A stretch of DNA of 64,000 nucleotides from Candidatus Bathyarchaeota archaeon (GTDB lineage Archaea > Thermoproteota > Bathyarchaeia > Bathyarchaeales > Bathycorpusculaceae). The notes beneath the pieces are model-generated. The model saw only the letters and a list, made by a program, of their open reading frames with translations, ran no database searches and had not been told where the DNA came from. The stretch lies in NCBI GenBank assembly GCA_963717465.1, contig OY970340.1, positions 1,504,001-1,568,000 of the forward strand, written 5' to 3'. The position numbers were made by a program, and so were the translations under genes. This document shows positions 1-19,604 of this stretch, piece after piece. Numbering within the stretch: the stretch's first letter is position 1; each line of letters begins with the position of its first letter.

Positions 1-902
1 GTGTAAACAAGAGGCACCGCCTGGTCACAGGGCACCGAAATTGCTTTTCGGACTCCAAGATTCATATCCCACGGGTTCGGGTACTCAATTGGGCAGGTAT
101 CTCTGCATTCTCCGCATCCAGTGCAGTTCTGCGCGATAACGTAACGAGGATTTTTGCGAACCTTCACATGAAAGTTGCCGATGAATCCTGACACGCCAAC
201 TAAATCTGCAAAAGAAATAATTTGGATGTTAGGGTGACGACCAACATCAACCATTTTTGGTCCTTCAATACAAATGCTGCAGTCAAGCGTTGGAAACGTC
301 TTGTCCAGTTGAGCCATGTGTCCGCCGATGCTTTCGCTTTTTTCAACAAGGTACACTTTGATGCCCATTTCTGCTAAATCTAAAGCAGCGCTTATTCCAG
401 CAATTCCACCGCCAAGCACCATTGCCTTGTTCGTAACTGGAACTTCAATTCTTGTTAACGGTTGAAGCAATCGGGCTTTTGCAACCGCCATCTTTATTAT
501 ATCTTTAGATTTTTCCATGGCTTCTTCAGGCTGTCCAGAATGAGGCCACGAAGAAAACTCGCGGATGTTCGCTATCTCAAGCAGGAACGGGTTTAATCCA
601 GCCTCGGAAATTGTTCTCCTAAAAGTCTGCTCATGCATTCTTGGGGAGCAGGCAGCCACTACAACACGGTTAAGCTTGCTTTCTTTGATTGCTTTGCGTA
701 TTATTTCTTGTCCAGGATCAGCGCATAAGTACCGGTTTTCTTTAGCAACGACGACATCCGGCAACGTTTTTGAGAATTTCACAAGAGCCTTTATGTCCAA
801 TGTTCCAGCAATGTTCAATCCACAATGACAAATGAAAATGCCTATCCGTGGTTTTCCTATCTTTTGCTCAGGCGCTACATCAATTTCCGACGCGAGATTC
901 AC
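1..902 (-). CDS. hdrA: Heterodisulfide reductase subunit A, Cys-encoding paralog; 3' part runs off the window
   Basis: Manual translation: [15 protein letters not shown]...[12 protein letters not shown]...VLGGGIAGISAALDLA...[25 protein letters not shown]; open frame from a possible GTG at 902 to the window edge. Confidence 0.92.
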   Translation of the reverse strand, partial: MNLASEIDVAPEQKIGKPRIGIFICHCGLNIAGTLDIKALVKFSKTLPDVVVAKENRYLCADPGQEIIRKAIKESKLNRVVVAACSPRMHEQTFRRTISEAGLNPFLLEIANIREFSSWPHSGQPEEAMEKSKDIIKMAVAKARLLQPLTRIEVPVTNKAMVLGGGIAGISAALDLAEMGIKVYLVEKSESIGGHMAQLDKTFPTLDCSICIEGPKMVDVGRHPNIQIISFADLVGVSGFIGNFHVKVRKNPRYVIAQNCTGCGECRDTCPIEYPNPWDMNLGVRKAISVPCDQAVPLVY

Positions 903-1157: not shown

Positions 1158-1706
1158 ATGACTCAAGCACCTGTACCAAATAATAAAGAGCCCATAAAAT
1201 CTTCTGAGATGGACCCGAATTTTAAGCGTGAACTCATGAAAATGCATGGGAGCGAAAAAATTCTCAGATGTTACCAGTGTGGAACTTGCACTTCTGATTG
1301 CCCTGTAGCACGCTATAGTGATTCTTACAGGCCGCGAACATTAATTCATATGGCTAAATTAGGCCTAAAAGACCGAGTTTTAAAGAGTGACACTTTATGG
1401 TTATGCGCTGCTTGCTTTACATGCACTGACCGTTGTCCACAAGGTGTTGAAGTAGCAAATGTCATTCGGGTACTGCGCAATTTAGCCGTTGAAAACGGAT
1501 GCGTCCCCGATGTTTTCAAGGAGCAAACCGCAAGCCTACTTGATTCAGGGTACGCTTACAAAATTCCAGAGTTAAGAATCAAAAAACGTGAAACAACAGG
1601 GTTGCCACCCTTGCCAAAAGGAAACGCGGAAAACTTGCGTAAAGTGCTCAAAGGCGTTAAATTTATAGATAACATTCAAAAACCGGTGGAGTCACATGGT
1701 CAATAA
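1158..1706 (+). CDS. hdrC: Heterodisulfide reductase subunit C
   Basis: CYQCGTCTSDCP and CAACFTCTDRCP 4Fe-4S motifs; overlaps the hdrB start. Confidence 0.92.
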   Translation: MTQAPVPNNKEPIKSSEMDPNFKRELMKMHGSEKILRCYQCGTCTSDCPVARYSDSYRPRTLIHMAKLGLKDRVLKSDTLWLCAACFTCTDRCPQGVEVANVIRVLRNLAVENGCVPDVFKEQTASLLDSGYAYKIPELRIKKRETTGLPPLPKGNAENLRKVLKGVKFIDNIQKPVESHGQ

Positions 1707-2577
1707 ATTCCTGTTTTTCCTCGGCTGCGCTATTCCTTATCGTGTGTCGTCGTACGAGATTTCGGCACGAAAAGTTCTCTTTAAGCTTGGCGTTGAATTG
1801 GTTGAGATGCCTGAATTCAATTGCTGTGGCCTTCCGTTTGATCCGGTTAGCCACGAAACAATGCTTATTCTTGCAGCAAAGAATTTGGCGTTGGCTGAGC
1901 AGCAAAAACTGGACGTGTTGACTTTATGCCCTGGATGCGCTGGAACGCTAAAGAAGGTTAACAAGAGTCTGAAAGAGGATAAAGTGTTAAGAGCAGAGAT
2001 TAACGCTCACCTAAAAGAAGCAGGATTGGAATTCAAGGGAACCATCAATGCTAAACACTTGCTTCAAGTGCTCAAAGAAGATGTGGGATACGATAAAATT
2101 AAGGCTGCAGTTACTAAGCCGTTGAGTAACTTAAAGGTTGCTGAACACAATGGCTGCCACATTTTAAGACCAAAAGAGTATATTGGGTTTGATGATCCAG
2201 AAGATCCTAAGACACTAAGAGAACTGATTGAAGCTACGGGTGCAACATGCCTTGATTACATGGATAAAACTGAATGCTGCGGAGCACCAAGCGTAGGAAT
2301 CAACGATAAAATTGCGCTTCAATTAGCAAGAGACAAACTTAACCACGTGAAAATCGTTGAAGCCCAAGCATTAATCACGATTTGCCCGTTCTGCCACATA
2401 ATGTACGACACAAACGAGCTAAGAATCGAAAAAATGTTCAACGAAACCTACGGCATCCCCATAATCCATTACCCACAACTGCTCGGGTTAGCTATGGGCA
2501 TGACTCCCGAAGAATTAGCATTCAACGAGCTACGAGTCAACGCATTAAAACTCCTAAACAGCCTCAAAAATCAATAA
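1696..2577 (+). CDS. hdrB: Heterodisulfide reductase subunit B
   Basis: Two CCG domains (FLGC...NCCG...CPGC; HNGC...ECCG...CPFC). Confidence 0.93.
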   Translation: MVNKFLFFLGCAIPYRVSSYEISARKVLFKLGVELVEMPEFNCCGLPFDPVSHETMLILAAKNLALAEQQKLDVLTLCPGCAGTLKKVNKSLKEDKVLRAEINAHLKEAGLEFKGTINAKHLLQVLKEDVGYDKIKAAVTKPLSNLKVAEHNGCHILRPKEYIGFDDPEDPKTLRELIEATGATCLDYMDKTECCGAPSVGINDKIALQLARDKLNHVKIVEAQALITICPFCHIMYDTNELRIEKMFNETYGIPIIHYPQLLGLAMGMTPEELAFNELRVNALKLLNSLKNQ

Positions 2578-3594: not shown

Positions 3595-4854
3595 TTAAAC
3601 TTGAAACGGAATTTTGAAGGTTTCAAGATAAGCCTTAGCTGAATATTCCATATTTTCCAGCGGCGAAGTAGGATCAAAGCCTATCGCATGTCTGGTTCTA
3701 TATCCCTGTGTAGGATACGCCGCAAATATCTTTGCTTGTCGCTTCCACATGTCAAGAATTCTTTGTTTAGGGCCGTCCAACATAGTTTTCACGTCAGCAC
3801 CGCACATTGCTGTAACGTTATTAAATTTCCTAGTCATCTTGTACCATTCCTCTATAGGCGGTGACTCAGAGTGTCCTAAAATACCAATGCAACCACCGTT
3901 CTCAGATGCGATTTGACTAACGATTTCCATTGTGACTAAAGGTGCTTCTGGAGCAAACCCGCATCTAAATCCTTTTTTTGCAGCATAAGGAACATCGGAA
4001 CCGTAAGTGAGAGGCAAAGTTCTCTTGAACTCTTCAAGATTAAAAAAGCTTGCGGCATCGCACCACCATAGCCAATTGCCTTTTCCGCTCTCATCTAGGT
4101 CAGAATCTAGTACGCTTATCATTCTGTCAATCTTTTTGTGGAGGAATTGAGATGAGCATTTAAGAATTAGTTCGGCCATTTCAGGATTTTTACGCATATC
4201 AACCAAAAGATTTTTGATTCCTCTAAGGAAGCTAGCGCCAGATATAGTGCCAGGACAAACCGATCCGTTTACCACAAATTCTGGGAAGAATTTGAATGAT
4301 TGCCTAAGTAACCATAGATATGACGGGTATGTCCCTTGTAGTGCGGGATCAGGCATATTATCTAAGAAGAACAGTGCGTCTTCTCTGGATTTTAGTAAGG
4401 GTTCAATGGATAATGGTGGACCGTATTCAATCAATCGGTATTTTGAGCTAAGTACTTCTTCGGCGTAACTGAAATTATTAGGAGCGATCAGGTCGCTGAG
4501 CCAGAACTTAGTTGTCCATATCACTTGTCCGAGGAAATCTAAGTTTGGATAATTTATCATGTCTCTTTGTCCAAATACTGATGGGGTTTCAGCGAATGCA
4601 TCAAATACCCTGGGCATGGCATTGTGAACTCCTGAACAGAGAATGGATAGGCGATCGAGTGGCCCATTGCTAAACTGAGTCCTTGCGAGCCGCTCTCTTG
4701 GTGTTAATTGTTCTTCGCCCTTTCTCTCCATAATTCTTTGGCGGCACTTCGTAATAATGAACTCTTCAGTTTCACTCCACTGATAAGTAAATGGAGCTTT
4801 GTTAAGAGTTCTAAAATAATCACCGTTTATTTCTTGAGGTATTCTTAAACTCAT
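3595..4854 (-). CDS. Uroporphyrinogen decarboxylase/MtaA-fold protein, probable corrinoid methyltransferase component
   Basis: LTPRER...DRL N-terminal motif and GSVCPGTISGASFLRGIKNLLVDMRKNPE; paralog of 8169-9437; near a corrinoid protein gene. Confidence 0.72.
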   Translation of the reverse strand: MSLRIPQEINGDYFRTLNKAPFTYQWSETEEFIITKCRQRIMERKGEEQLTPRERLARTQFSNGPLDRLSILCSGVHNAMPRVFDAFAETPSVFGQRDMINYPNLDFLGQVIWTTKFWLSDLIAPNNFSYAEEVLSSKYRLIEYGPPLSIEPLLKSREDALFFLDNMPDPALQGTYPSYLWLLRQSFKFFPEFVVNGSVCPGTISGASFLRGIKNLLVDMRKNPEMAELILKCSSQFLHKKIDRMISVLDSDLDESGKGNWLWWCDAASFFNLEEFKRTLPLTYGSDVPYAAKKGFRCGFAPEAPLVTMEIVSQIASENGGCIGILGHSESPPIEEWYKMTRKFNNVTAMCGADVKTMLDGPKQRILDMWKRQAKIFAAYPTQGYRTRHAIGFDPTSPLENMEYSAKAYLETFKIPFQV

Positions 4855-5162
4855 GATTTCGCCTCGCACGCTATTTGCTAATGATTGTCTCTGAAGTTAG
4901 CTATTATTAAATTCTAGTCAATTGCACATGTGCGAGCAAGGGAAGGATAGAACGGATTAAAATTTAATCCCCAAATCCAAATCCAAAACCTAAAAACGTG
5001 GGATGCGTCTAAGAAGTGCAGAAAAAGCAGTATTATGCTCTTTATGCCCCTTGCCAAATTATTGTTCCCAAAAAACATCAAAGGCACGCTAGACATAGTT
5101 ACTCTGCAATTGTTAAACTCGCATCCAATGCCTGGTCATGAATCATAAAGCATTTTTCTTTG

Positions 5163-5892
5163 GTACATTTTAACCGAATATAATTTGCAGCTTCAAAGGT
5201 TCGGTTTGTGGCCCTTCAAGTCCTATCAGGCCTTTCAGTATGGCCGACATAGGGGATAATGTTTGTCCATTATTCCTTTGAAGGTTTCTGTTGTCCAACT
5301 TAAGGTTACAACTGCCTGATCCTTTTTAATTGCCTTTTCAAATTTCTCAAGGATACCTTCCATAGATAGCTTATACCAGTATCCAACGTTTGCATCAGTG
5401 TATATAACCTGAAATGCCTTGCCCCAACCTGTCATAACTTCCGCATTTTCCCTAATTCTATCAGCCATTCTATTTGCAAGTTCATCAGCTATCTTTTCCT
5501 TACTTTGTGACAATTTTTTTCACCGCAGTTTAATTCCTCTAAATCTTTTATATAATTGAGTTCGTTTTATTGAGTTCGTTTTACTTGCAATGCACTAGAA
5601 GAAATAGGTTTACAGGCAAATAGCTAACAAGTTAAGCTTCTCAATTTTGAAAAAGTGCTCCAAAGAATGCGTGGGGATCACAGAAAGGCTTCAGCAACTA
5701 TCTTTGGATGAAAACGGGGTTCTGAGAGAAAAATAAAGGATTTGAGGGGAGAATTAGCCTTTGGTTACCAGTAAGTTTGAATTTCTAGAGGTTGACCGTT
5801 TAGTTTTTAGTGAAAAGAAATATGTAAGTGAGGGATTCAAGGAAAAACAACTAGCATTTCGTCCTTTTGCAACGTCCTCAAAAATATAAACG
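5163..5892. repeat. Segmental duplication copy 1 (SCP2 gene plus divergent promoter region)
   Basis: Direct repeat of 6669-7385; intergenic part nearly identical except a 14-bp tandem duplication at 5555-5582. Confidence 0.95.
5170..5513 (-). CDS. SCP2 sterol-binding domain protein, copy 1 (1-nt frameshift near 5272)
   Basis: Colinear with 6676-7020; 344 vs 345 nt; restoring one A gives ...LSPMSAILKGLIGLEGPQTEPLKLQIIFG*. Confidence 0.7.
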
Positions 5893-14255: not shown

Positions 14256-15493
14256 AAAACATGACGGTAATAACAGTTTTAGAAAATAGTTTAAGGATTG
14301 CTTGGAAGGACATTAGAGCGATGAGTCGAATGAAGGGAGTAATGGTGATGCTTATTCTTATGCCGATATTTATGATGGTTATGGTTGGCTTCATTTATCC
14401 AAGCGGCAGTTCCGTTGATATGAGTAGCTTAAAAGTTCAAGTTATCAACCAAGATATAGGATACAATAATGTTAGTTTAAGCGGGATTTTTACTTCAGCC
14501 TTTACTGTAGCTAATAATAATAGTACTAAAATGCAATTATTCACTGGTGCTAATGGCACAAATGAAGATACACTTAAGGACAGCATTAAGCAAGGTGATT
14601 TTGATGCAGGCATTATTATTCCTGAGAATTTCACCTATTGTATCCTGACTAAGCAGAAAGTAAACATAACTGTCATTACAGATAATTCTAATCCGCAAAT
14701 CAGTCAATATTCTAGTGCCGCGTTGCAAGGATTAGTGGGAGCTGGCTGGGAAGGACTGATGATTGCACCAACTGTGAATCAGCAAATTGCACAGTTGTTC
14801 AGTTATTACAATCTGACAGACCCTAATGCAGGGTATTACATGGCACCTTATGCAGTCGCTTCAAGTGGTGTTGTAGGTGGTGCTAACACAAACTACTTCG
14901 AATTTATTGCTCCTGCCATGATAATGATGACTGTAATGTTCAGTGTAATGACTAATCTGCCGCAAGCTATAACTCATGAAAGAGAATTGGGCACGTTAGA
15001 TGGCATTATGGTTGCTCCGATTAATAGACTTTCAATTATAGTTGGAAAAACATTGTCTTCACTTGTGTATGGCTTAATTCAGGGCTTAATAATAATGGCA
15101 TTATCAATAGGTTTATTCGGAGTTACCATACAGGGAAACATTTTGCTCGTATTTGGTTTACTGTTTCTTGGCGTTTTCAGCTTTGTAGGATTAGGTATAG
15201 CTTTAACTTCACTTGCAAAAGATCAGCAGACAGCCTCAATGATAATGATGACATTGACATTCCCGATGATGATTCTCAGTGGCATATTCTTCCCGATAAA
15301 AATGATGCCACAATTCATGCAATATATCAGTGATTGCCTGCCGTTAACTTACGCTGCGGATGCCATGAGGAAAGTTATGGTGTTAGGTGCAAATGTTTCA
15401 CAGATATCAACAGACCTGATCGTGCTAATTGTGTTCGGCATAGTTATGCTCGTAATCGCAGTGCCAATATTTAGAAGGATGATGACAAGATAA
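14252..15493 (+). CDS. ABC-2 exporter permease
   Basis: ERELGTLDGIMVAP, LSGIFFP, PLTYAADAMR; multiple TM segments. Confidence 0.92.
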   Translation: MKNMTVITVLENSLRIAWKDIRAMSRMKGVMVMLILMPIFMMVMVGFIYPSGSSVDMSSLKVQVINQDIGYNNVSLSGIFTSAFTVANNNSTKMQLFTGANGTNEDTLKDSIKQGDFDAGIIIPENFTYCILTKQKVNITVITDNSNPQISQYSSAALQGLVGAGWEGLMIAPTVNQQIAQLFSYYNLTDPNAGYYMAPYAVASSGVVGGANTNYFEFIAPAMIMMTVMFSVMTNLPQAITHERELGTLDGIMVAPINRLSIIVGKTLSSLVYGLIQGLIIMALSIGLFGVTIQGNILLVFGLLFLGVFSFVGLGIALTSLAKDQQTASMIMMTLTFPMMILSGIFFPIKMMPQFMQYISDCLPLTYAADAMRKVMVLGANVSQISTDLIVLIVFGIVMLVIAVPIFRRMMTR

Positions 15494-15529
15494 ACTAGAA
15501 AGGCAGCTACATGCAAGCAACATTTTAAA

Positions 15530-15550
15530 TTTCTTTTTTTTATTTCTTTC
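15530..15550 (+). terminator. T-rich archaeal terminator after the ABC operon
   Basis: tttctttttttttatttctttc-like tract ~40 nt after the stop. Confidence 0.5.
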
Positions 15551-15919
15551 CGTACCATTAAAACTCGCGAGCACTATCGAGCTTTTTTCTTATGGTACGT
15601 CTAACTTTTGCTAACACGCGCGGCGCTCGTTAGCTGCAGAATTATAGGTTTTTACTAAACTATGCATTTCTGAATTATTTTAACCGGTTACTCTTTTTTC
15701 TTACTTTTTCCTAGAACCTGTTCCTCGCACTCTTGTTTAGCACCATTTTACGATTGTTTAAGCCTTTATCGATTTGCATTCGCCGCTAATCTGAACCATA
15801 AAGAACAAGTCGAAGCTATTATTGATTAAGAAAATTGAGATAGTCATGTAGTGCTATTTAATAAAGGCAAGCAAGCAAATCAAGATACTAATTATTAAGC
15901 AAAAAAGTTGGTAGTTTAT

Positions 15920-18484
15920 TTAGACGGGTTTTCCCCCGTCGGTAGCTTTGGCAACTGGAGCAACAGGTTTTGCCACAGCTTGGTCGGCTGGTTTAGCTGC
16001 TGGGGCTGCTGCTGGAGCTGGGGCTGCTTTGCGTTTTAGCATGTTCTCTAGTGTTGGTTTAAGTTTTGCGTTTTCGGCTTTGATTTTGTCTTTTCCCAGT
16101 GTCTTAATTTGCTCGGTCATTTCCTTAACTATATCGGCGAATTTCGGTCCTTCAGCTGATGAAACATAATCAACCCTGAGTCTTTCTGGGCTCAACCCGA
16201 GCTTTTGAAGCATGCCAGATAAGGCATCCATGCGTGCTTTCATCTTTACGTTTCCAGAGATATAATGGCAATCGCTGGGAAGATGGCAAGCGGCAATCAG
16301 TACCCCTGCTGCTCCTAACCTAAATGCTTCCATAACGAAGTCCTTGTCCACTCGTCCAGTACACATTACTCGAATAGACCGTGTCATTGGCGGGTATTCA
16401 AGCCGGCTCGTCCCTGCACGGTCCGCGCCGGCGTAACCTCACCAGTTACACATAAACGTCAGTATCTTATCTTCCGGGTCTTTTTCTAGCGCACCCCTGA
16501 TTTGTGAGAATATTTGTTCATCCGTAAAGTGCATCTGAGTTAAAGCATCTTGCGGGCATTCTGCAACACATGTTCCACAACCGTGGCACATAGCCGCATT
16601 GATCTGGGCTGGTTGTCCCGGATTCGCAGTTATGGCTCCAAAGGGGCAGCTTTTTACGCATATTCCGCATTTTGCTTTTGCGTTTCTGCACTTGGCTACG
16701 TCAACTATCGAGACGATGGGTTCTATCAACCATTTGGGTTGAGAAAGGATGGTTGCAGCTCGTGCTGCTGCGCCGCTTCCTTGTGATACGCTGTAGGGTA
16801 TGTCTTTTGGTCCTTGGGCAGCGCCTGCTATGAATACTCCATCCATAGGTGTATCGATTGGTTTGAGTTTTGGGTGGCTTTCCATGAAGAACCCGTCTGA
16901 TCCTCGCGTTATGTGGAGGATGCTGGCTAATTCTTGGGCTCCTTTGCTGGGTATTGCGGCTGTGCTTAACACAACGAGTTCCGTTTCGAGATCGAGGGGT
17001 AGTCCCAGCGCCATGTCTTCTGCTCGTACAATCAAGTTTTTGGTCTTTGTGTCTTCAATTATGTTGGATGCTTTTCCCCTGATGAAGTTGATTCCCATTT
17101 CACGGGCTCTTCGATAGAATTCTTCGTAGCCTTTGAAGGGAGTTCGCATATCCATGTAGAGAATGTAGACTTCCACATCATCATGGTAATGTTCTTTCAG
17201 AAGGATGGCTTCTTTGAGCCCATACATGCAGCAGAAACCTGAACAGTACTCGAACTTGTTTATGTCCCGTGAACCGACGCAATTAATGAAAGTGACGCTT
17301 TTCGGTTTCTTTCCATTGGACGGGCGGATCATGTGTCCACTTGTTGGGCCGCCTGCTGTGATAAGTCTCTCAAACTCCAAAGCTGTAATTACGTTATCGT
17401 ATTTTCCATAGCCGTACCTGGCGTCGTCATAAGGCATATAAAAGTCGCAACCGGTTGTTACGATGATTGCTCCAACTTCCAATTCAACTTCTTCCGGCTT
17501 CTGATCAAAATTGATAGCTTCACGTGCACCACAAGCATCAACGCATTTGAAGCACTCTATGCAGTAATCCCTGTTTATTGAGTAGATAAGAGGCACTGCC
17601 TGATCAAACGGAATGGAGATAGCTTTTCTTAAACCTAAATTCATCTCAAACTCATTAGGATACTCTATTGGGCAAGCATCTCTGCATTCACCACAACCAG
17701 TACATTTTCCAGCCATAACGTACCTTGGGTTCTTGCGAACCTTCACTCTGAAATTGCCCACAAACCCCTCCACGTTGAGGACGTCCGCATTGGATATTAC
17801 TTGGACCTTAGGATGGCGATATACTTCCACCATCCTAGGTCCTTCTATTCATATGCTGCAGTCTAAAGTGGGAAAAGTCTTGTCGAGTTGTGCCATGTGA
17901 CCTCCTATGCTCGTGTTCTTCTCGACAAGGTATACTTGGAACCCCATGTTCGCCAAATCAAGAGCGGATTGGATGCCGGAAATGCCTCCGCCGATAACCA
18001 AGGCGTTTTTTGTCACCGGCACCTCCATGGTTTCAAGAGGCGCAAGTAACCTCGCTTTGGCAACAGCCATCCTTACAATGTCTTTTGCTTTTTCCGTGGC
18101 TTCTTTCGGAGTGCTGGGATGGCACCACGAAGAGAATTCACGTATGTTGGCCATTTCAAAAACATAAGGATTTAACCCTGCTTCACTTACGGTTTTCCGA
18201 AATGTTGGCTCATGCATTCTTGGGCTGCAAGCGGCTACAACGACGCGGTTTAGTTTGTGTTCTTTTATTGCTTTTCTGATTTCTTCTTGTCCGGGGTCGG
18301 CGCATGTGTAACGGTTCTCTTTAACTAAAACAACGTCAGGTATCGTTTTAGCGTATTCGACTACTTGTTTAATGTCAATTGTGCCAGCGATGTTTAAGCC
18401 GCAGTGGCAAACAAAAACTCCCACTCGTAAAGGTTCTGGTTGTTTGGCGGATTCAATTGGTTTCTGTGTTTCTTTATTGCTCAT
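15920..18484 (-). CDS. hdrA: HdrA-MvhD fusion (854 aa) with two in-frame UGA codons at positions 212 and 682; putative selenoprotein or readthrough product
   Basis: ORFs 17849-18484, 16439-17833 and 15920-16387 share one frame; junctions read TLDCSI*IEGPRM and [14 protein letters not shown]; both stops are TGA at conserved Cys/Sec sites. Confidence 0.88.
16402..16432 (-). promoter_or_regulatory. Stem-loop 6 nt downstream of UGA-682 (candidate recoding signal)
   Basis: GCCGGC-G-CG-GA-CC/GUGCA/GG-GA-CG-A-GCCGGC: 10 G-C pairs plus tandem G.A. Confidence 0.6.
17803..17842 (-). promoter_or_regulatory. Stem-loop 6 nt downstream of UGA-212 (candidate recoding signal)
   Basis: GGACCUAGGAUGGUGG-AAGUAUA-UCGCCAUCCU(A)AGGUCC: 16 bp including 2 G-U, one bulged A. 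Confidence 0.7.
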
Positions 18485-19416
18485 TTTGAAACCTCTTCAA
18501 CAAATAATCTTCTTTCTACTGCTTCCTTTCTTTTCGAGGCAGCAGCAGCTTTCAATTCTTTAATAGCCTCAACAGGTGAAGTAAGCCTTTCTAAGGATTT
18601 ATTCCATGTCCCTGAATGAATTGGAGTATGGTATATTTTGGTTCTTTTTAACCTTAGGGCTTCATCAACAGGACAAACCACTTTGCACGCACCGCAGAAA
18701 TCGCAAAAAACATCGTTCACATGAACTTTTTTATCCTCGCCAAGCGTTAAGGCTCCTGGTATGGGGCAGACGTCAAGGCAATCTCTGCAACCTTCAGGGC
18801 ATTTCTCCTGATCAATCTCTAATTATCCCTTCAATGCACTTTTTAACTTTAATCACTCCCGGTGCACATTTGAACTCGCAAACTCTGCAGGTTGGGCAAT
18901 ACTCTTTTTGAATGTCAAGGTTAACTCGCACATGTTTTTTTTCGTGTGGTGGCAATACATCTAGATTTTCCATTAGTTTGCCGTCGGATCAGTTTTTATA
19001 ACTTTAATTAAAGATAGAGGACATGCGCTTTCACACTCGACGCATTCCTTTGGGCACTGACGTGAATTTACCGTAATATCGCGGATGAGTGATGGATAGC
19101 TTTCTTTTGACAACACAGCAAGATCATGCTTGCCATTTAACGTCACTTTAATAGCTCCATATGGACAGGTGACGTCGCAAATACCGCAAAAACTGCATTT
19201 CGCTAAGTCAATGTCGACTTTGGCTTTCTTTGTTTTTTCTCCCTGCACCTTTGGTTGCTTTTCGAGTGTTATTACACCTTTTGGGCAGGCTAAACTGCAT
19301 ATTTGGCAGCCTACACACCGCTTTTTATCTAACATTAGCTTGAGATCCTTTACTGGCAAAATCCACTCTAAAGTTAAAGAATCTGCGGAGTTTTTCTTTA
19401 TTGTTTTTAAAGGCAC
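18481..19416 (-). CDS. Polyferredoxin (FwdF/MvhB-like), split by about two frameshifts
   Basis: Repeated CxxCxxCxxxCP motifs across frames ([56 protein letters not shown]); stop overlaps the hdrA start. Confidence 0.8.
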
Positions 19417-19604
19417 TTACTTTAATCCTCCAATCGATTGTTTGCTCGTAACGGGTGCTCGCATTTGTTCGCAAACACCAACCAAACAGCAAGTCATTCG
19501 AACATCCCGCGCAGTTTTTAAGGGAAGTATTTTAGAATATAAATATTCCTTGCGGTAACATTGATTCCGCATGACTGCAAAAGAAACTCCGGTATCCTAA
19601 TTTT

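Follow-up and report, generated by a model that had tools for sequence, protein, structure and literature searches.

Archaeal selenocysteine (Sec) insertion sequence (SECIS) elements described so far lie in untranslated regions (UTRs) (PMC11881835, PMC13188914), and the reviews and primary papers to 2026, as far as their accessible text goes, place them there and call the factor that binds them unknown. Sec-encoding systems with a fusion of PSTK and archaeal SelB (aSelB) are reported for diverse Bathyarchaeota by Mukai et al. in 2017 (PMC5424206) and 2022 (PMC8762117), and a review (PMC9499178) repeats the description of this fusion in one open reading frame (ORF). Here we describe, in a 64,000-nt stretch of a Candidatus Bathyarchaeota genome (hereafter the window; genome G000, in which the gene lies on a single contig, C1, of 3,053,889 bp), a gene for a fused HdrA-MvhD protein that has two in-frame UGA codons, each with a hairpin directly 3' of it inside the coding sequence. 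An earlier note, made from the letters of the window, had taken Sec use not to be established in this lineage; it was already published in the two papers of Mukai et al. The gene itself would be a further case of that known Sec use. The new part is the adjacent in-frame hairpins, a proposed variant of Sec decoding in archaea that comparative evidence supports well. In the literature to 2026 we met no description of SECIS elements within coding sequences for Bathyarchaeia or other archaea, a point on which the figures and supplements of Mukai et al. may bear. The explanation that we find best overall, with a probability of roughly 0.6, is an intact two-Sec gene that would be decoded by an archaeal Sec pathway with the hairpins as the signal.

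We found that the gene's frame (15920-18484, reverse strand) has 855 translated positions, of which only 212, 682 and the last are stops. The standard code splits it into three same-frame ORFs, 17849..18484 (211 aa), 16439..17833 (464 aa) and 15920..16387 (155 aa). By Pfam, the read-through product has an FAD/HdrA-like N-terminal part, 4Fe-4S domains and an FlpD/MvhD domain at residues 674-797 (E 5e-47), the last of which extends across codon 682. Residues 18-666 align with 5ODC_A, the solved HdrA of Methanothermococcus thermolithotrophicus, and residues 671-804 align with 5ODC_D (MvhD). The best NCBIfam model was HdrA2 (NF040770), covering residues 20-800 with 1074 bits, just below its cut-off of 1100. 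The order is thus the HdrA domain set and then MvhD/FlpD, that of the described class of MvhD-fused HdrA, 'type Ia' (PMC12054007). Codon 212 pairs with Cys197 of 5ODC_A, and the canonical Sec position of HdrA is ~200 (Mariotti 2016, PMC4989117). These results bear out what the earlier note had read here, namely one frame of three ORFs broken only by two TGAs (translation gives its quoted contexts and its 854 codons), an HdrA-MvhD fusion, and a first UGA at the Sec/Cys position of HdrA. By homology, the protein of this non-methanogen would be the flavin-based electron-bifurcating or -confurcating core of an Hdr-type complex with the MvhD electron-entry module attached, and Sec would stand in for the Cys beside the flavin adenine dinucleotide site and for one Cys of MvhD.

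We surveyed 45 loci (L025-L069) by tblastn and found a stop at both positions in 12 of them, all at least 84% identical: the gene's own locus, L026, L045-L052, L055 and L056. Read codon by codon, the 10 intact orthologues have TGA at each site and synonymous differences in neighbouring codons, and L055 and L056 keep both TGAs despite frame breaks elsewhere in the gene. Both TGAs are also present in G330, a genome of a second genus. In comparison, both sites are Cys in all 21 Bathyarchaeia loci of 68-77% identity, which agrees with the claim that other homologues carry Cys; L057, which covers the second site only, is Cys there as well. In the remaining, more distant loci, the second site is mostly Cys and the first-site column is mixed in paralogous hits, and in two loci, from a bacterium (Thermincola), position 212 alone is a stop. 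Two further sets of TGA-bearing rows were rejected as Sec sites. G021 and G023, from the same genus, have Cys-type genes with indel-type frame breaks, and in the distant HdrA homologues of other families (G025, G027, G030, G035, G038 and G318) the TGAs are gene ends, with Cys or, in some paralogues, another residue at the two sites.

Directly 3' of the UGAs, the spacer to the hairpin is exactly 6 nt at both sites. Hairpin 1 folds at -24.3 kcal/mol (z -6.04), with none of 200 shuffles as good, and hairpin 2 alone folds at -20.8 kcal/mol (z -4.11). The same structure occurs in the same register at both sites in all 12 Sec-type loci, and in G330 as well; across the 12, the energies are -20.7 to -28.4 kcal/mol for site 1 and -22.9 to -25.9 kcal/mol for site 2. 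In comparison, the 21 Cys-type relatives encode nearly the same peptides, with few residue changes, in other codons, and they have no common structure (-4.1 to -18.5 kcal/mol at site 1 and -10.3 to -23.3 kcal/mol at site 2). Hence, energy alone does not discriminate at site 2.

Synonymous diversity was lowest at the hairpins. It was taken pairwise over amino-acid-invariant degenerate codons (527 of 856 columns, with a mean of 0.32) after the 10 intact Sec-type genes had been aligned by codon. The two deepest troughs lie directly 3' of the UGAs, at codons 216-230 (0.08) and 681-695 (0.06), and the next lowest values are 0.14 and 0.16. The hairpins also have the geometry of the bacterial SECIS model, for which PMC13188914 gives, in the part available, an in-ORF hairpin with a loop of 3-9 nt, an upper stem of 4-16 bp, 16-37 nt from UGA to loop and a minimum free energy (MFE) of at most -7.5. 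Here the loops are 7 and 5 nt, the UGA-to-loop distances 22 and 19 nt, and the stem length and energies are within the model. The bacterial rule of a G in the first two loop positions holds at site 2, where the loop reads GUGCA or GAGCG. Site 1 has AGGUAAA in several orthologues and AAGUAUA, with G third, in this genome. From these comparisons the hairpins are very likely functional recoding elements of some kind, and they are probably the Sec insertion signal themselves.

The same layout recurs in other genes. A genome-wide scan for in-frame TGAs preceded by at least 40 codons and followed by at least 25 gave 2753 sites, 410 of them with coding-like codon usage on both sides; for these 410, the median 60-nt MFE was -8.2 and the first percentile -20.5. 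At the top of the list stood HdrA site 1 and 11 paralogues of a molybdenum/tungsten (Mo/W) bis-pyranopterin guanine dinucleotide (bisPGD) oxidoreductase, all with UGA, a 6-nt spacer and a hairpin. Each of these paralogues has ~150 codons before the TGA and ~620 after it, and the TGA is followed by 6 nt and a CCCACG...CGUGGG hairpin (loop UAGGAUU, G third). The TGA lies inside the Pfam Molybdopterin domain, and 10 of 10 copies that match the peptide pattern have TGA there. When the 11 hairpins were aligned, 89% of cells paired, vs 23-47% with the partners slid, and five pairs change on both sides, a count reached by 2 of 500 shuffles. At E<=1e-100 the family was found in none of the 100 other genomes of the genus. 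Under the rule of UGA, ~6 nt and hairpin, at least 13 candidate Sec genes are counted in this genome.

Several further observations concern the Mo/W family. At least two copies, those at 617083 and 2799134, are interrupted further downstream. In the databases, its nearest relatives appear as fragments of ~600 aa, cut where the UGA stands. Among NCBIfam models even the best, PhsA and FdhA, scored far below their cut-offs.

Beyond this genome, the layout is also seen at the UGA of SelD from G039 and G211, of other Bathyarchaeia families, and at the UGA of three homologous surface proteins with signal peptides and of a fourth that is weakly similar, all of them beside Sec genes in two other families. 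The surface-protein genes (L132:17059-18519, forward strand; L134:5918-7162, 4754-5797 and 1342-2406, reverse strand) stand beside SelD/SepSecS. Their products have a signal peptide and Ig-like, CarboxypepD_reg or dockerin domains, and the UGA falls in an N-terminal domain without a Pfam match. The hairpin begins at +8, and three of the genes are clearly homologous (E 1e-15 to 1e-36); they may be a new selenoprotein family. We found none of these genes in G000.

The Sec machinery is on the same contig as the gene, outside the window, and the window itself holds none, as the earlier note had said; tRNA-Sec, SelB, SelD, PSTK, SepSecS and UCA tRNAs, which it had named for a genome-wide search, were all found. 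Two tRNA-Sec genes scored 71.8 and 61.8 bits (gathering score 47), and ARAGORN called both as SeC with anticodon tca. SepSecS (489 bits) adjoins a tRNA-Sec, and SelD scored 240 bits. PSTK and SelB are in one ORF of 732 aa, with a second such ORF of 730 aa; the PSTK part scored 151 bits, below the curated cut-off of 290, and the SelB part has the archaeal domain III without the winged-helix extension. No SelA above cut-off was found in the genome, which gave 20-bit hits only. Of 1381 long frames, 350 end in UGA, and ARAGORN found no UCA tRNA other than the two tRNA-Sec. Hence, recoding is site-specific and the genetic code is not changed. Of 101 genus genomes sampled, nine have SepSecS above cut-off, and the same nine, and no others, have tRNA-Sec above cut-off; of 401 sampled in the class, 12 have SepSecS, and these belong to 6 of 131 genera. 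PSTK and SelB are fused in all five of the other Sec-positive Bathyarchaeia checked, one copy being interrupted. The fusion co-occurs with the hairpin layout and may be causally linked to it.

Some features of the tRNAs and of the second fusion stand apart. At G000:C1:2827783-2829725 (L002, L015), a tRNA-Sec(UCA) with a compensated acceptor-stem change adjoins the second PSTK-SelB ORF as a second Sec module. The second ORF is 54% identical to the first, and its SelB part, as aligned, has the G motifs GHCKHGKT, EMPGN and SKID, vs GHVDHGKT, DLPGH and NKID in the first. Two tRNA-Sec genes occur in this genome only, among the 101 genus genomes sampled. All 10 tRNA-Sec genes (nine genomes; L001, L002, L092-L099) encode CCA right after the discriminator G; a review has archaeal tRNA-Sec genes not encoding CCA. 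The alignment of the 10 genes, read by eye, has an apparent U:U mismatch in the acceptor stem. At G000:C1:904785-904882, ARAGORN called a tRNA to which it gave no type, with an anticodon of four bases (ccgg); this tRNA may contain an intron.

From gene content and conservation, we infer that the gene is intact and encodes a selenoprotein, and there is little doubt that both UGAs would be decoded as Sec by an archaeal-type pathway. Sec would be made on tRNA-Sec(UCA) by PSTK and then SepSecS, with SelD, and delivered by the aSelB part of the PSTK-SelB fusion. The hairpin from the 7th nt after the UGA, in the bacterial placement, would mark Sec-UGAs off from ordinary UGA stops, and the candidate reader of the hairpin would be the PSTK-SelB fusion itself. 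We put forward only tentatively, as somewhat less likely than not to hold, that Bathyarchaeia use a third mode of Sec decoding, in which archaeal/eukaryal Sec synthesis is combined with an in-ORF hairpin read directly by PSTK-aSelB and no 3'-UTR SECIS takes part. A bolder extension, for this genome only, is that the two tRNA-Sec and two PSTK-SelB form two partly separate modules, one for HdrA-type and the other for Mo/W hairpins.

The main rival to the hairpins as the signal is that the gene is a true two-Sec gene whose hairpins only stimulate decoding, in the manner of Sec codon redefinition elements (SREs), and that the real SECIS is an unrecognised UTR element. Some eukaryotic selenoprotein mRNAs have both an SRE beside the UGA and a SECIS in the 3' UTR, according to the accessible part of PMC3541580, and a UTR is where every archaeal SECIS so far described has been placed in the papers cited above. 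We found no 3' or 5' element common to the 10 orthologues (median flank identity 0.52 for 5' and 0.38 for 3'). A run of at least five T lies within 4-13 nt of the stop in five of the 10, this genome included (its six T begin 14 nt after). The nine intact Mo/W paralogues all have T-runs 15-35 nt after the stop, their only common 3' motif, and weak local hairpins. From what is known of archaeal transcription, these mRNAs would have almost no 3' UTR if the T-runs are terminators.

Two hairpin-like stretches in G000 (window ~15545-15637, ~280-375 nt after the stop), which this rival could claim, were rejected as 3'-UTR SECIS candidates; they lie beyond the T-run and have no counterpart in the orthologues' unrelated 3' flanks. 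In the window at 14500-19500, Rfam gave five chance-level matches at E<=10 and no SECIS family, which is weak evidence, as Rfam families may not cover archaeal types. A euryarchaeal GAA_A-type SECIS has no correlate in a UTR element common to the 10 orthologues or the nine Mo/W paralogues, although no GAA_A pattern search was made; likewise, neither an Rfam SECIS nor a common 3' element points to an Asgard/eukaryote-like AUGA_GA kink-turn SECIS, for which no dedicated pattern search was made. On this evidence we consider an unrecognised UTR element with hairpins as mere stimulators unlikely.

Several results weigh against the explanation that we find best, and some of them favour a UTR element. 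Hairpin 2 in its GC-rich 63-nt context has a z of only -1.17, and 25 of 200 shuffles fold as well. At the same site, two Cys-type relatives match the Sec-type energy (-22.8 and -23.3 kcal/mol) through other structures. The HdrA hairpins are invariant and hence yield no covariation; the Mo/W hairpins show modest covariation, among paralogues of a single genome, which are not independent. PF09107, the SECIS-binding winged-helix domain of bacterial SelB, has no hit in the genome. G009 has the two-UGA gene, yet no SepSecS or tRNA-Sec was found in this genome, which is 56% complete. The other five of the 10 orthologues, which lack an early T-run, have in common a GC-rich 3' segment whose local hairpins fold at -12 to -18 kcal/mol; this segment may be a 3' element.

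The SelD gene of this genome (G000:C1:951702; L008 position 1531) is the last such point, and it too speaks for a UTR element. Codon 14, the catalytic Cys/Sec codon, is TGA (...VHG-U-SCKLP...), and no hairpin was found in the +7 register (60-nt MFE -9.2), nor in the SelD of G315, G327 and G151. Hence, the hairpin rule is not universal, and those genes must have another way of marking the UGA. In five Sec-positive genomes of the genus the codon is TGC and the sequence after it is nearly the same, and TGA occurs in five of the seven SelD genes found among eight other Sec-positive genomes; the TGA of this genome could be either a real Sec codon or an assembly substitution. A longer-range SelD fold (+20 to +88) was rejected as a signal, as the Cys-type genes fold too (-22.8 to -38.7 vs -24.8 to -32.2 kcal/mol), with no discrimination.

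A second alternative keeps the gene intact and drops the selenium: the UGAs would be read as Cys, placed on tRNA-Sec by crosstalk from Sep-tRNA, or by a near-cognate Trp or Cys tRNA, with the hairpins promoting read-through. Mukai et al. (2022, PMC8762117), in the text available, raise possible crosstalk from Sep-tRNA-Sec to Cys in archaea with SepRS/SepCysS, and SelD of this genome itself needs UGA decoding. The Sec pathway is complete, however, and co-occurs with tRNA-Sec in all nine genus genomes having either. Reading UGA as Cys would also add nothing, because a Cys-type paralogue already exists 15 kb away. We regard this alternative as very improbable.

A broken gene (pseudogene or assembly error) or three separate polypeptides is hardly credible: although indel-type frame breaks do occur in this and related long-read assemblies (the L055, L056, G021 and G023 copies), 12 assemblies, from different species, agree in the codon position of both TGAs, the FlpD domain spans codon 682, and median pairwise dN/dS, the ratio of nonsynonymous to synonymous substitution rates, is 0.085 before the first UGA, 0.109 between the two and 0.106 after the second (45 pairs). 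Hence, all three segments are translated and constrained alike. The earlier note's view that the TGAs are unlikely to be errors is therefore upheld, as is its proposal of UGA recoding in a Bathyarchaeia archaeon, with Sec as the probable residue on conservation, purifying selection and the complete machinery; the tblastn and dN/dS comparison that it had suggested shows the TGAs kept in all 12 loci and no decay after them (~0.1).

Around the gene (Table 1), the Sec copy is isolated, with a ferredoxin gene upstream and a convergent ATP-binding cassette transporter downstream. The ferredoxin is a possible partner of the Sec-type HdrA-MvhD. No HdrB or HdrC partner gene adjoins the Sec copy; HdrC- and HdrB-like genes adjoin the Cys paralogue 15 kb away. 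The Sec copy with a nearby Cys copy is reminiscent of the Sec/Cys isoenzyme pairs of Methanococcus. At L045, L047 and L049, a Cys-type HdrA paralogue lies ~300-400 nt downstream of the Sec-type gene on the same strand, and in G330 (L105) the Sec-type gene is at most ~400 nt from SepSecS. A further HdrA-MvhD-like gene of this genome (G000:C1:799572-802025, L074) has Cys at the canonical site and is split into ORFs of 301 and 434 aa, which may be an assembly frame break or a pseudogene; its TGAs were rejected as Sec sites, the gene being Cys-type and split.

Table 1. Features of the gene, its surroundings and the related loci (window positions, or positions on contig C1 of G000 where so marked).
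Feature	Position	Strand	Basis or remark
HdrA2-type HdrA-MvhD fusion gene, 854 codons, two in-frame UGA (putative Sec) codons	15920..18484	-	translation, Pfam, structure-sequence alignment, NCBIfam
UGA 1, codon 212, canonical HdrA Cys/Sec site (Cys197 of 5ODC_A)	17849..17851	-	codon reads TGA; context TLDCSI*IEGPRM
UGA 2, codon 682, conserved Cys position near the N-terminus of the MvhD domain	16439..16441	-	codon reads TGA; context FMCNW*GYAGAD
Hairpin 1, candidate Sec insertion signal within the coding sequence	17803..17842	-	16 bp, one bulged A, 7-nt loop; begins at 7th nt after UGA 1
Hairpin 2, candidate Sec insertion signal within the coding sequence	16402..16432	-	6-bp GC stem, short stems around G/A and tandem GA/GA internal loops, 5-nt loop; begins at 7th nt after UGA 2
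Run of six T, terminator-like (putative function)	15901..15906	-	begins 14 nt after the TAA stop
Cys-type HdrA-MvhD paralogue, N-terminal part, 68% identical	3..902	-	continues past window start (G000:C1:1502431-1504851, no stops)
HdrC-like gene (Fer4_8)	1158..1706	+	divergent from Cys-type paralogue
HdrB-like gene (CCG domain)	1696..2577	+	divergent from Cys-type paralogue
2x[4Fe-4S] ferredoxin gene	18973..19416	-	upstream of Sec copy, same strand
tRNA-Sec(UCA) 1	C1:845693-845779		directly beside SepSecS
tRNA-Sec(UCA) 2	C1:2829638-2829725		
11 Mo/W-bisPGD genes, ~770 codons, UGA at ~codon 150	first bases of TGA at G000:C1 124642, 132694, 480584, 617083, 1134713, 1211628, 1822504, 2055182, 2378454, 2495990, 2799134		loci L070-L073, L082-L091

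If the hairpins are the signal, the position of the SECIS is not fixed by the domain of life, which bears on the question of which arrangement is ancestral. These archaea would also offer a simpler system for finding the reader of the archaeal signal, because that reader must act at the decoding ribosome. It would further account for the systematic splitting by annotators of selenoprotein genes in these abundant sediment and soil archaea, and it would provide a search rule to recover the split genes: UGA, ~6 nt, hairpin.

Compared with known systems, HdrA and VhuD of Methanococcales and Methanopyrus likewise have Sec at the canonical HdrA position of ~200 and in the MvhD/VhuD module. There, in the descriptions available, the genes are separate, VhuD has two Sec, and a GAA_A-type SECIS lies in the 3' UTR, whereas here one fused gene has one Sec per module and no common 3' element. 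The tandem HdrA-VhuD genes of Lokiarchaeia/Asgard similarly have several Sec codons up to ~2 kb apart and the archaeal PSTK/SepSecS pathway. Unlike here, where each UGA has its own adjacent hairpin, they have one kink-turn SECIS downstream of VhuD, and RNAz gave no other conserved structure in or near the genes, according to the text available of Mariotti 2016 (PMC4989117). HdrA2 (HdrA type Ia, e.g. Methanosarcina HdrA2) has the same domain order, and those are Cys proteins.

In placement, the hairpins are closest to bacterial SECIS elements (e.g. E. coli fdhF), which are also in-ORF hairpins directly 3' of the UGA, one per UGA, with sequences that vary between genes. Sec synthesis here is archaeal in type, however, with no SelA over cut-off and no SelB winged helix, and the loop-G rule holds only in part. 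The element would be like a bacterial SECIS in position without belonging to the bacterial system. In the bacterium Thermincola, the hairpin at the HdrA Sec site is weaker and lies at a greater distance from the UGA (+18 to +38, -11.7 kcal/mol). Eukaryotic SREs (SEPN1 and others) are likewise in-ORF stem-loops immediately adjacent to the Sec-UGA, but they act with a 3'-UTR SECIS, and no such partner element was found here.

The system described for Bathyarchaeota by Mukai et al. (2017, mBio; 2022, Front Genet, section 3.4.1 and Fig. 9) is of the same lineage and has the fused PSTK-SelB ORF, and HdrA and VhuD are among the selenoproteins named there for related archaea; here, a tRNA-Sec lies beside SepSecS. 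The main text of the 2022 paper does not use the term SECIS. Relative to that text, the hairpins within the coding sequence, the second tRNA-Sec/PSTK-SelB module and the Mo/W expansion are the additions made here.

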